In this document: piece by piece, positions 4,769 to 9,187 of the stretch
How the letters are laid out: the number at the start of each line of letters is the position of its first letter
How positions within the stretch are numbered: the stretch's first letter is position 1
Source of the DNA: Picochlorum sp. SENEW3
Taxonomy: Eukaryota
Direction: 5' to 3'
DNA: 64,000 nucleotides
NCBI GenBank assembly: GCA_034226945.1
Contig: CP120459.1
Location: 682,001-746,000 of the forward strand
Program-made: the position numbers and the translations under genes
Notes under the pieces: model-generated
Told to the model about the DNA's origin: nothing
The model's database searches: none
Seen by the model: only the letters and a program-made list of their open reading frames with translations

Positions 4769-5627
4769 CTAATCGAAAACAATCTTCTTTCCTGCTGGCT
4801 TGTGTAAATGGATTGCTAGCATGTCCTTCGATTCCTTTTTCGCTGCCCATGATGGGTGCAGAGGAGCTTCAGCCGCTTTCTTCGTTTGATTTTTCTTTCT
4901 CTCTGAAGATTTATGCTTTGCATCCGTGCCATGCAATTTCTCCGCAAGCCTTTGCCGAGCCCTCTGTCCCATTCTATTTTTTGGCTTTTTTCTCTTGACC
5001 TTGTCCTGACTTTTAGGGATTGCATCTTTTGCAGAGGCTTTCACGGTCTTTTCCTCAACTCTTTGGAGATCATCTACCTGACTTTGTTTAGGCTTTAATG
5101 GCATGTTCTCCACCACAGGATTCATCTTGGCCTCCTGCAGTTTTTCCTTGATATCCCTCAAGCCTTGCACATGATCAACTACAACCTGAGAACCTGCGAC
5201 CCTGATGGAATCTTCATCTAACTCTTCTTCTTGTGGACCATCTGCACACAAAAAGCTCCAAACTTTTGCAACGTCGATATTTTTCGTCCGATTCAATTTG
5301 TCTTCCAGGGGAGGAACATGGGTTGGTTGAGAGTCCTTTGCCTTCTTCAGGCTCTTTACTACTTTCCAAATTTCTGCCTCCTTACTTTTCTTGATTGCCT
5401 GTACAATGATGAAATTCTAATCATTGATCTATCATGCTCAGATAGAGCCAAACGAGCCATACCCTTTTGAGTTGAACCTTGCATGCGTGAAGTTTTTTCC
5501 CGTAGTATTCTTCCCTGTAATCGGATTAAATGCCATCAAAAGTATTTCTGAACCAAAAGAAAATGAAACAGCCACCATACCCTTTGGTTGAGCTTCTTTT
5601 GCGGGCTTTAGGACGAGAGTTTCCCAT
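4769..5627 (-). CDS. BUD22/SRFBP1-like ribosome biogenesis protein
   Basis: C-terminal signature 'KNRMGQRARQ...LHPSWAAKK...GKKIVFD'; basic first exon from ATG 5627. Confidence 0.8.
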
Positions 5628-5830
5628 GCCGTCTTTACATGTGGTTTGACATTTTGTACACGTTAAGTTGCTGATCGTAAGATATATATAGTATAAAATT
5701 ACATACTTGGTTTACATTCGCACAGTAGTGTAGATGTCAAAATCCATGCAAAGACCAAATGTCGAGGAAAAAAGAGTGCCTATGCATCATTTCAGATCTG
5801 ATCAATGGTAAAGGCAAGTGAAGCTGCAGT

Positions 5831-7126
5831 TCAAAGAAGGCACAAATCAAGCACCTCATCGAACACATCTTCAGAGACTGAAGCACATTTGAGAAGTTTG
5901 AGTACCCAATCTTCGTCAAGCATGTCATAGTCTTCTTTTCTCTTCATCAGCATGTGACCAGATATTTCAAAAACTGCTGGATCCACCTGAGAATCCAACA
6001 CGTCCTGTGGCAGTTCGTTCCTTGCTTTTCTCTGCGAGAAGTAATTTGGAACCAAAAAAACTCTTGCACCTCTGTCCACAATGAGCATGTTGTGAGGAAT
6101 ATTTTTCACAGCAAGTCGCTGACACAGGCCTCCAATCAAATTTGCCATATCAGTTGGATCACCTCCTGATTCAAATACGAGACCATCCACTGGATAATCA
6201 ACCAATTTTTCGATACGAATAGAGGAGTGACCAACTTTCTTCTTTGAAACGAATGTGGTTTTTGCGCGCTCCAGAGGCATTGCTGCTGACAAGTAGTATG
6301 CTTGGAAATGAAGATGGTTGATTGTTGCATATGCGCCCAGCGAGTTATATCCAATCCTGAAATATGGATTATTTGCTTCCTGAGCAAATTGAAGTGCCAG
6401 CAGGAGTGTGTCAGGTGTCACAAGCTGTGGCAAATTATCCAACACTCGTGGAACGAGGAGGACATGGCCATACTCTATTGGTGAGACATTAATCACAACC
6501 AGATTTGGAGAACCTGAAACAACGAAAGCTTCCTCAAACTCTCCCCCACGTCCGTGTTGACTTTCTTCGAATGCAAACAGAACTTCTTTCTGCATTGCCT
6601 TGCAGAAATTGAATTTGCAGTCATCAAATGGCTGGTCCACCTTGTCCACGCGAAATTCTGTTGGCCTCTTCTTAGAAGCTCTGCCTTCGTTCAGCTGAGC
6701 AATAAACCCATATGATCCTTCAATTGTGTGCGTTGGGCACGCTGTCACATCGTATCTGAATAATCCTTCTTCCGCCTTGCATTCCCACTCTGCCAGGATC
6801 AAGGTGTCCAACAAGCTCTTCTGAGGGACAACCTGTCCACTGGACTCTGAGCTGTGCTCGTCAGTAGAATCTCCCACGTGTGAGGAGATTACCTCGGATT
6901 CATTGTCAACATCTGGGACAACCATATCGGTAAAGCTTCCGAAAGACCTGATTTTGTGAATGGCATTCACTTTTGGAGCAAAATTGTACAAATGCACCGT
7001 GGCTCCCAAAATCTGCCTGATTGGCTTCTCGGACGAATCAAGTTTCTCCTCATGTTTGCTCTGATCATCATCCTGTAACTGAGTCAGAGAATACACAGTC
7101 TGTGATTTCACAATGGAGAGTGTCAT
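5831..7126 (-). CDS. VTC2: GDP-L-galactose phosphorylase (ascorbate biosynthesis)
   Basis: Motifs 'GLFRYDVTAC', 'QLNEGRASKKRPTEFRVDKV', 'INVSPIEYGHVLL' and the HIT-like 'ATINHLHFQ'. First ATG is at 7126 (MTLSIVKSQTV); the CDS has no introns. Confidence 0.96.
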   Translation of the reverse strand: MTLSIVKSQTVYSLTQLQDDDQSKHEEKLDSSEKPIRQILGATVHLYNFAPKVNAIHKIRSFGSFTDMVVPDVDNESEVISSHVGDSTDEHSSESSGQVVPQKSLLDTLILAEWECKAEEGLFRYDVTACPTHTIEGSYGFIAQLNEGRASKKRPTEFRVDKVDQPFDDCKFNFCKAMQKEVLFAFEESQHGRGGEFEEAFVVSGSPNLVVINVSPIEYGHVLLVPRVLDNLPQLVTPDTLLLALQFAQEANNPYFRIGYNSLGAYATINHLHFQAYYLSAAMPLERAKTTFVSKKKVGHSSIRIEKLVDYPVDGLVFESGGDPTDMANLIGGLCQRLAVKNIPHNMLIVDRGARVFLVPNYFSQRKARNELPQDVLDSQVDPAVFEISGHMLMKRKEDYDMLDEDWVLKLLKCASVSEDVFDEVLDLCLL

Positions 7127-7337
7127 TTTTCTCTCTTGTCTCCTCAACTGTTGTAATCCACCTTTTGACCTTATTGCTAGCCTTATTTTCGATTATGGCC
7201 AAAAAATTTATGTACGATTCCTCACGATACTATCTGAAAGATTTATTTAATGTATGTATCCTTTAAAGGATTTGCTATGAGAATTCCTAATACTTGGCTC
7301 ACCAAGAGTCTATTCGAGCTGTTTGCTACTAGCAAGT

Positions 7338-7543
7338 CTACTTGTTTCCTCCACCAGACTGGCGCAAAATATCCTGGAAATACGTCAAAAACGAGATTAG
7401 GCAAAGATCTAGATCCAAGCCAGGGCGTAACGTTCAAACATAAACGAGAGGCTTTCAACACCACATGCAGCAGCACGCACCGAAGGGCTTCCCCCCAAAG
7501 ACACAGGACAACCTCTACCACCAGAATTATGTAAATTAATCAT
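7338..7543 (-). promoter_or_regulatory. Conserved-peptide uORF of VTC2, split by a 107-nt intron (32 aa: MINLHNSGGRGCPVSLGGSPS|DILRQSGGGNK)
   Basis: Exon 7543-7481, intron GTGCGT...TTTCCAG 7480-7374, exon 7373-7338 ending in TAG. The spliced peptide aligns with the land-plant GGP uORF motif HGGRGALPSEGGSPSDLLFLAGGG (recalled). Confidence 0.85.
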
Positions 7544-7858
7544 CTATAAGTATTTCTAACACCAATGTACTATGTATCTTGTTTCGATCGCAATATTCTC
7601 TTTTGATTCTGAAGTGAAGTCTCGGACTCTACCACGTTACGTATACGAGCTGAATGAACGCTCACTGAGTTGTATTCCAAAGTCAACAGTAAGAATCAAA
7701 TTTCTACCGGACCACTGCGCGGCATTGACGCATGTATATGCCACGTGAAATGGCGTTAATGCAACGCGTGTGGGCATCTTCAATCCCGAGAGATGGTACC
7801 ATCAATACTGATGTCCAATGGGGCACATACGCCTTGTAGATCCGTGGCTGAAATTACA

Positions 7859-9187
7859 TTACAGTGGCGGACTTCTCAAGTCAAACACTCGACATACGCA
7901 ATCTTCTCCTCCAGTCAAGATCTGATTGCCATCTGGTGACAAGGCCATATTCTGGATAGGATCAGTGTGTCCTCTGAACTCATACACACAAGACCCTGAC
8001 CTTGCATCCCAGCAGCGTACTATTCCATCGAGGCAGCTCGATACAATCATATGATTTGATGGATGCGCTAATACTTTGGTAACTCCATCGGGATGCTGGC
8101 ATTCCACGCGTACACTGAGTGTGGCCATATCCCACACGACCAGATTCCCATCCATACCAGCACTTGCTGCCAGGGAGTTGTCTGCCAGATAAATAATGCT
8201 TTCTATGCTCGTTCCATCAGCGTGCTTATCCAAAGACCCTAATACTTTCCCTCCCTCGAGGGATACTAATTTAACAGTCCCTGCTTCTGCTCCAGAGAGA
8301 GCAGTTTGGCCATTGGGATGCATTCCCATGCATGTGAGACCAGTGGCATGGAAATGTGCCCCCTCAACACACGTGATAGCCTGGCCTGACTTTGGATCCC
8401 ATACACGGAGAGATGCGTCTCCCTCTCCTCCCCCCGTGACGACCAATTTCCCATCAGGGGTAAAAGAGCCACACGTAACTGACCCTGCATGCCCAGAGAA
8501 GGTCATCATGAATTCCCCATTTTGGGCCGACCACATCCATGCCGTGAAATCAGAAGAGCCAGCAAGAACTATACTTCCTCTAGGATGCCATTGAACCCAC
8601 TCGACAGATTCAGATGGCCCATCAAGGGTATGCAGGCAGCTGCCATGTTTGACATCCCAGATTTTGACGCAACCATCCATGGCCCCACTGGCCAGCAAAC
8701 TGCCATCGTGATTAAAGTCCATCGACGTGATTGTATCCTTATGTCCTTTTAGTTCAAAGACATCCCCTTGATTTTCCATAAAAGCATCTTCGCCTACCCT
8801 CCAAATGAATCCTACATCGTCTCCCCCACCTGAGGCCACCGTGTCAGGTGAAACTCTGCTCCAGGCCACAGCATATACGGCTTCACTATGCCCTTGAAAT
8901 GCATGTATTGAATCATCCACATAATCACTATCCATCATCATATCCATATCTCCTTCATACTCTTCCACAACCTCGCCTGCGTCTCCTGCGCACATGCAAC
9001 TCAGCGTTGGGGTATATTCTTCACATGAAATAGACCAGGAACGAAAACCCATCACCAATTATGTTACAATACCTTGATTTCCATCCAAATCAGCCACAAC
9101 AGTCCCACCAACAACTTCTCCATTTTCAATAGCCACGTAATCTTGTTCGTCACCAGAAGCACCTCCCAGATCGGTAGATTCCTCCAT
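7859..9187 (-). CDS. WD40 protein, AAMP/Sqt1-like (uL16 chaperone)
   Basis: Acidic N-terminus, then 'DDSIHAFQGHSEAVYAV', 'ASGGGDD', 'WHPRGSIVLAGS', and about 8 WD repeats. First exon from ATG 9187. Confidence 0.85.

Follow-up and report, generated by a model that had tools for sequence, protein, structure and literature searches.

The closest described system to the element reported here is the conserved-peptide upstream ORF (CPuORF) in the leader of land-plant mRNAs for GGP/VTC2 (GDP-L-galactose phosphorylase), which was reportedly presented by Laing et al. (2015, Plant Cell), in an abstract that is said to give its range as 'from mosses to angiosperms'. The fungal arginine attenuator peptide is a further metabolite-linked arrest uORF. 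Polyamine and sucrose arrest uORFs are named as other metabolite-linked examples in the accessible sections of a review (PMC11066809). With these three, the scheme that we propose below for a green alga would share the basic principle: a short leader peptide stalls its own ribosome and thereby lowers translation of the main ORF as feedback. They differ from it in their unrelated sequences, in a stall at or near the stop codon and in their ligands.

For the GGP uORF of land plants, a length of 47–65 residues is given in the accessible text of two papers (PMC6878703, PMC7020166), and ribosomes are described as stalling upstream of its stop codon in Arabidopsis in the available part of another (PMC13578316). 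The link to ascorbate goes back to land-plant reporter work as told in reviews, and the same reviews state, in their accessible sections, that even in these plants it has yet to be proven that ascorbate acts directly in stalling (PMC11066809, PMC6380273). Reviews treat the GGP uORF as a land-plant device; for green algae, another mode of VTC2 regulation and a lack of ascorbate feedback are described. Our literature search, whose reach ended before the taxonomic table of non-AUG CPuORFs, returned no report of a GGP uORF in green algae, of an AUG-started minimal form or of a conserved uORF intron. We regard novelty in green algae as provisional.

The window that we analyzed is a stretch of 64,000 nt from the green alga Picochlorum sp. 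SENEW3 (contig CP120459.1, positions 682,001 to 746,000), and all coordinates below refer to it. Its minus strand carries a single-exon, intron-free ORF of 431 aa (5831..7126), in which the initial annotation had recognized VTC2. This identification is borne out by the family relatives of the translation. We found 1415 of them at E<=1e-10, and PF26216/PF26217 are recorded on all 120 relatives listed (of the 1415), several of which are named GDP-L-galactose phosphorylase. A local Pfam scan of the 5831-7126 protein returned no family, despite these precomputed domains on its relatives. The closest relative is 98% identical, and its 90% cluster contains a 431-aa protein from Picochlorum sp. BPE23 together with a Picochlorum sp. 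SENEW3 entry. In a tree of the conserved part of VTC2, the window protein stands beside the Picochlorum protein of this cluster, inside the trebouxiophytes (Trebouxiophyceae). The protein evidence thus places the window in Picochlorum, a marine trebouxiophyte green alga.

On the same strand and 5' of the VTC2 ORF, a second and much shorter reading frame occupies the leader position. Its first exon (7481..7543, minus strand) consists of the AUG and 20 further codons and encodes GGRG-x5-GGSPS. It is followed by a phase-0 intron of 107 nt with GT..AG ends (7374..7480, minus strand), which opens with GTGCGT and closes with CTAAT and a pyrimidine-rich TTTCCAG before 7373. The second exon (7338..7373, minus strand) adds 11 codons, namely D-x5-GGG and two further codons, and then TAG. 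The spliced uORF thus has 32 codons, and its core comprises 26 residues. A spacer of 211 nt (7127..7337, minus strand) separates the uORF stop from the main AUG. Translation reproduced the uORF as the initial annotation had drawn it, from the ATG at 7543 through both exons and the intron at 7480-7374 to the tail ending in TAG. It also confirmed that an in-frame TAG (7544..7546, minus strand) lies immediately 5' of the AUG. Because of this stop codon, the start must be the AUG, and an in-frame upstream or near-cognate start does not come into question. One description needs to be narrowed: the spliced peptide had been called invisible to a six-frame ORF track. This is correct for the conserved tail, which stays hidden, but exon 1 does show up, as part of a 44-aa ATG ORF in the unspliced DNA (7409-7543) that lacks the tail.

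Splicing of the leader could be observed directly in RNA. We compared the contigs of four public sequencing runs with window positions 5500-8000, namely X10, X2 and X4, which come from three studies, and X1. X10 is an oligo-dT metatranscriptome and is on record as RNA, while X1 was rated as probably DNA. In three of the four runs (X10, X2 and X4; three studies), the contigs contain a joint, 7372->7480, by which 107 nt are left out. Its ends read CT..AC on the plus strand, corresponding to GT..AG on the minus strand with the cut moved by +1. This is exactly the 7481^7373 junction, with splicing at 7480/7374, that had been predicted from the DNA. X1 reads through the intron and has no joint. The spliced form was the only one seen in the three RNA runs, in contigs that drop rare forms. 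X10 and X4 each have a single contig that runs from the VTC2 coding region through the spacer, exon 2, the splice and exon 1 to 99–139 nt upstream of it. Exon 2 shows zero differences from the window in all three RNA runs, and the interval 7480-7682, which comprises exon 1 and the upstream leader, shows 1–2 differences per run.

The upstream limit of the RNA contigs is 7642 in X10 and 7682 in X2 and X4 (two studies), and the DNA-like X1 continues past these points. Since the RNA contigs reach this far, the uORF AUG lies on the RNA. The shared end is a weak hint that the 5' end of the VTC2 mRNA lies near 7682; contigs as such are not informative on transcription start or on rare unspliced forms. 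Stretches that are not covered by RNA contigs (for example 7684-7825 in X10 and X4) carry no evidential weight. There may be a second transcription start 3' of the uORF, which would give a VTC2 mRNA devoid of it.

Some further observations concern the surroundings of VTC2. Upstream, the neighboring gene on this strand encodes a WD40 protein (7859-9052, minus strand), which is the ribosome assembly protein SQT1 according to the source names, and a mere 316 nt separate its end from the uORF AUG. In X2, a lower-depth RNA contig overlaps the VTC2 leader contig at 7653-7682, which suggests that the 3' end of the WD40 gene and the 5' end of VTC2 are close to each other or overlap. The protein cluster of P0002 contains a public Picochlorum record of 1087 aa named 'GDP-L-galactose phosphorylase 2', as opposed to the 431 aa of the ORF found here, and SQT1-named proteins are also present in this cluster listing. 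The 1087-aa record may be a merged gene model. On the other side of VTC2, at window positions 5566-5580, loose ends occur in the RNA contigs of X10 and X2 just before 5580, where they share a near-identical consensus, and in X1 at 5566; such a pattern suggests a splice site or an edge of the next gene downstream of VTC2. Behind 5803, in the 3' region of VTC2, three runs carry an additional 7 nt, and 5 nt at 7610 are absent from all four runs relative to the window. Both indels are strain differences in untranslated parts.

We next turn to the relatives of the uORF. A survey of metagenome contigs around VTC2 relatives gave 291 pattern matches and, from these, 230 confirmed relatives, of which the best 80 were kept (L001-L080). 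The taxon labels of these contigs were inferred from the best named protein match and from the tree. A strict motif pattern was found within <=1500 nt upstream of VTC2 in 33 of the 80 loci (the best 80 of 230). Among them are 17 land-plant-like contigs plus one moss-like contig that carry GGRG-x5-GGSPSD-x5-GGG. The Picochlorum peptide, read across the splice junction, shares this core with the land-plant contigs at equal spacing, as the initial annotation had stated. The strict pattern missed the Picocystis-, Pyramimonas- and Mamiellophyceae-like loci. With a looser pattern the number rose to 36 of 80, the additions being contigs 94% identical to Picocystis, one Pyramimonas-like contig and one more.

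A profile of 26 columns, built from 19 distinct cores, was more sensitive. The window and the 80 loci in six frames (about 0.9 million residues) served as the background. In 72 of the 80 loci (again the best 80 of 230), the profile matched at E<1 upstream of VTC2 and on the same strand, with 36 matches at E<1e-3. Exon 1 of the window scored E=6e-8, and the best match that was not upstream of VTC2 scored E=0.76. The 36 weaker matches comprise 35 Mamiellophyceae-like loci, which had been absent from profile building, and an exon-2-only match in L009. In the weaker matches the full core is visible, at 185–700 nt from the start of the main ORF; those at E 0.65–0.75, the weakest, are at noise level by score and were accepted on their position and the visible motif. 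Eight of the 80 loci gave no match, and six of these have less than 300 nt of upstream sequence. The remaining two, L069 (1616 nt upstream) and L074 (999 nt), did not respond to the loose patterns either; L074 is related to the Mamiellophyceae-like loci. Away from VTC2, the motif was not seen anywhere in the 80 loci.

The 72 loci span land-plant transcripts and trebouxiophyte-, Tetraselmis-, Bryopsidales-, Pyramimonas-, Picocystis- and Mamiellophyceae-like contigs. The peptide is thus conserved in related algae. The invariant residues of the core are G-R-G, a further G and a P; the D and the GG are nearly so. Directly before GGRG, every land-plant contig has His, whereas members of the Picochlorum clade have Ser. 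In land plants, this His is important.

The genomic loci of the Picochlorum clade, with the identity of their VTC2 to that of the window, are L002 (68%), L003 and L004 (66%), L006-L008 (62%) and the Chlorellales-like L012 (47%). They share the architecture of the Picochlorum uORF: an AUG lies 7–8 codons ahead of the core GRG, a GT stands right after the P-S/T codon, an AG comes 110–241 nt later, and D-x5-GGG then follows, with a stop after 2–4 codons. The arrangement of a stop codon followed by the ATG also occurs in L003, L004 and L006-L008.

Codons were compared pairwise within this clade. Between the window and L006, the 26 core codons comprise 4 identical ones, 16 with synonymous differences and 6 with residue changes, and in all ten clade pairs synonymous codon changes outnumber non-synonymous ones. 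Nucleotide identity between the window and L002 is 0.79 in exon 1 and 0.69 in exon 2, against 0.36 in the leader, 0.41 in the intron and 0.29 in the spacer. In related Picochlorum strains (P0257 cluster), the intron is stop-free and in frame, and the unspliced DNA reads as one 68-aa ORF with both conserved ends. Five strain variants of this ORF differ at five positions; all five are intron-encoded and none falls within the 32 exon-encoded residues. Both the codon changes and the strain variants show purifying selection on the uORF frame at the level of the peptide, as opposed to the RNA, with synonymous sites that are saturated within the clade.

The two start codons of the window leader differ in their context in the way that had been claimed: the uORF AUG has U at -3 (TTATAG[ATG]A) and the main AUG has A at -3 (AGAAAA[ATG]A). 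A purine occupies -3 in 18 of the 24 long ORFs of the window, which is a crude proxy for the local preference. The distinct uORF AUGs of the clade have U at -3 in four of five cases and G in L002, and +4 is never G, while the clade main AUGs have A at -3 in five of five. It had further been stated that the spliced leader contains no other AUG, and indeed there is none from 7682 to 7127 besides that of the uORF. The leader above the uORF that is present in the RNA contigs (7544..7682, minus strand) is free of ATG, and none occurs in the 307 nt that follow the uORF AUG after splicing, spacer included (mononucleotide shuffles: mean 6.8, P(0)=0.001). L002 is likewise ATG-free between uORF AUG and main AUG. 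In L003, L004, L006 and L007, the sole extra ATG is a tandem ATG directly 5' of the main start, and in L012 it is in frame and inside the uORF.

Leaky scanning past weak first AUGs has been shown experimentally in the trebouxiophyte Auxenochlorella, according to the accessible part of the report (PMC11892635). By analogy, the leader layout of the window, with a weak uORF AUG, an AUG-free path and A at -3 of the main AUG, is of the kind for which leaky scanning is demonstrated there. The bicistronic loci of that study, as far as its accessible text describes them, also have a weak first AUG, a strong second one and a depletion of AUGs in between; they differ in that their first ORF encodes a functional protein and there is no arrest peptide (PMC11892635).

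Outside the Picochlorum clade, the uORF begins in different ways. In the land-plant contigs, ATC[ACG]G is located 31–35 codons ahead of the core, and the frames comprise 55–97 codons. An ACG with a purine at -3 and G at +4 is also found 22–29 codons before the core in four algal contigs, namely a Trebouxiales-like (L010:115-252), a Tetraselmis-like (L038:348-500), a Bryopsidales-like (L019:116-274) and an unplaced one (L025:393-530). Their frames have 46–53 codons, with Ala after the ACG in three of them, as in land plants, and the frames of L010, L038 and L025 contain no in-frame AUG. The non-AUG start may therefore be older than land plants.

A third form is found in the Picocystis-, Pyramimonas- and Mamiellophyceae-like loci, which have intron-less AUG frames of 40–55 codons. 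The Picocystis- and Mamiellophyceae-like loci are on long genomic contigs; the short algal contigs are possibly transcripts. The Mamiellophyceae-like uORFs are diverged, with 50–55 codons at 185–700 nt upstream of VTC2 (L013-L018, L020-L022, L028-L032, L041-L045 and L048-L050, with further loci in L053-L059, L061-L062, L064-L067, L070 and L073), and their cores fall into two types, TGRGSSS..GALPYD..GGG and GRGG..GAEPND..GGG. The 999 nt available upstream of VTC2 in their relative L074 contain no such uORF.

With a second profile, made from 18 unaltered uORF translations, we searched 1.84 billion representative proteins and obtained 105 proteins at E<=0.001, including 33 at E<=1e-10. The full motif is present in 96 of the 105, and almost all of the proteins are short ORFs in which the motif lies close to the end. 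A taxon name was obtained for two of the ten matched proteins that were looked up: XP_001693880.1 from Chlamydomonas reinhardtii, annotated as a 'predicted protein' of 55 aa, and a protein from Prasinoderma coloniale with 30 aa (P0260, P0262). For their alignments to the profile, both of which extend over the core, hhalign gives probabilities of 96.5% and 95.2%. The VTC2 gene of Chlamydomonas is Cre13.g588150. Prasinoderma coloniale represents a lineage outside both Chlorophyta and Streptophyta. Judging from these alignments, the uORF probably survives in both species.

Taken side by side, the Picochlorum and land-plant uORFs have in common the core GGRG-x5-GG-x-P-S-D-x5-GGG with equal spacing, conservation at the peptide level and a position upstream of the main AUG, at a distance of a few hundred nt. 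They differ in several respects. The Picochlorum uORF starts at an AUG after an in-frame stop instead of the ATC[ACG]G of the land-plant contigs. With 32 codons it is shorter than the 55–97 codons of these contigs and lies below the published length range. It is also split by an intron, has Ser in place of His before GGRG and stops two codons past GGG, unlike its land-plant counterparts. With the other green-algal GGP uORFs it shares the core and the position upstream of VTC2, and it represents the shortest, spliced form among them. In our view the start codon varies within this uORF family and is no bar to homology, and on the shared core and position it is almost certain that the Picochlorum uORF is homologous to the GGP uORF of land plants.

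The initial annotation had described the element as a minimal chlorophyte version of the switch. An AUG-started minimal form is indeed what we find at this locus, but it does not stand for chlorophytes in general, since other chlorophyte contigs have longer ACG frames and, by their sequences, appear to keep the ACG-type start. The AUG-started, split form of 32 codons would accordingly be a derived state of the Picochlorum/Chlorellales-like branch.

These data suggest the following mode of action. Splicing of the leader, which is observed, creates a frame of 32 codons whose core matches the arrest peptide of land plants. Scanning ribosomes would meet the lone AUG in its weak context; some would initiate there, and others would leak through to the VTC2 AUG. 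By homology, the nascent peptide would hold its ribosome near the Gly-rich end, and the ribosomes that follow would be blocked, resulting in less GGP. Ascorbate or a proxy for it would probably strengthen this hold and so close a vitamin C feedback loop, a step that is taken over from land plants by analogy and is the least certain one. We consider it likely that the uORF is translated and acts in cis through its peptide, as its conservation suggests. Whether it responds to ascorbate in Picochlorum appears to us an even bet. The explanation as a whole, a Picochlorum orthologue of the GGP CPuORF that works by leaky scanning, a peptide hold and probable ascorbate feedback, is in our judgment probably correct. 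Points against it are the Ser in place of the His before GGRG, the G at -3 of the L002 uORF AUG and the possible second transcription start 3' of the uORF.

One reason for caution about the ligand lies in Chlamydomonas. According to the accessible sections of two reviews, its VTC2 is not subject to negative ascorbate feedback in the physiological range (PMC9916717, PMC7020166); reviews describe control by oxidative stress instead. A Chlamydomonas ORF matches the uORF profile all the same, and presence of the peptide thus need not mean ascorbate feedback. It is conceivable, then, that the uORF encodes a real arrest-type peptide that works as a constitutive damper or senses another signal (a GDP-sugar, the redox state or light), ascorbate feedback being a later use made of it in land plants. 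Ascorbate is far lower in green algae than in vascular plants, as stated in the accessible text of a review (PMC11066809), and the unproven status of the ligand in land plants points in the same direction. However, the core has been kept from Mamiellophyceae-like contigs to angiosperms, always beside one and the same enzyme gene, and one conserved ligand or function is the simplest explanation for this. We therefore rate a peptide that has nothing to do with ascorbate in Picochlorum as unlikely.

The intron could itself be the regulator. In that case, splicing would decide whether the arrest peptide is made, and intron retention, which brings in another tail and extra leader AUGs, would set VTC2 output. 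Genomic loci with VTC2 proteins only 47–68% identical to that of the window (L002, L003, L004, L006-L008 and L012) have the intron at one and the same codon boundary, and the VTC2 coding region of the window is itself intron-free. The same boundary is used in L033-L035 and L079, two GC-rich lineages whose place is uncertain. The uORF intron contains two ATGs in the window and six in L002. On the other hand, Picocystis-like and Mamiellophyceae-like genomic loci have the uORF in one piece, so the intron is not required for the element. The three RNA runs contain the spliced form only, in contigs that would not retain rare forms, and the in-frame open intron of a related strain suggests that there is no constraint on the coding content of the intron. 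A regulatory role of intron retention thus seems very doubtful, and we continue to favor a peptide that acts on the ribosome translating it.

It is hardly credible that the 32-residue product, once released, acts in trans as a small protein or that the frame is a chance ORF without function. Some genomes do list short ORFs of the family as 'predicted' or 'hypothetical' proteins, but conservation is confined to the core near the C-terminus and the N-terminal part has anywhere between about 4 and over 30 residues, which fits a nascent chain acting in the ribosomal tunnel better than a folded or secreted product. The motif also keeps to VTC2 in the loci surveyed. Chance is ruled out by the synonymous excess and by the constant place of the core, upstream of the one gene, in 72 of the 80 loci.

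The presence of the core upstream of VTC2 across chlorophyte lineages would move the origin of this uORF to the base of the green lineage. We consider it likely that the GGP arrest-peptide uORF was already present in the last ancestor shared by all green plants, that the ACG start is ancestral and that the Picochlorum uORF is a derived minimal form. If this is true, it would be among the oldest known metabolite-linked nascent-peptide switches, and the question would have to be reopened whether green algae truly lack translational feedback on vitamin C synthesis. The comparison across lineages also shows which residues are truly essential, namely G-R-G, one G and one P, with D and GG close behind. 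A natural minimal version of 32 codons should be useful for toeprinting, reporter and structural work on stalling and sensing. The conserved uORF intron in an otherwise intron-less gene remains a small puzzle. The GGP uORF is already a gene-editing target for raising the vitamin C content of crops, and a corresponding edit would be conceivable in production algae such as Picochlorum.
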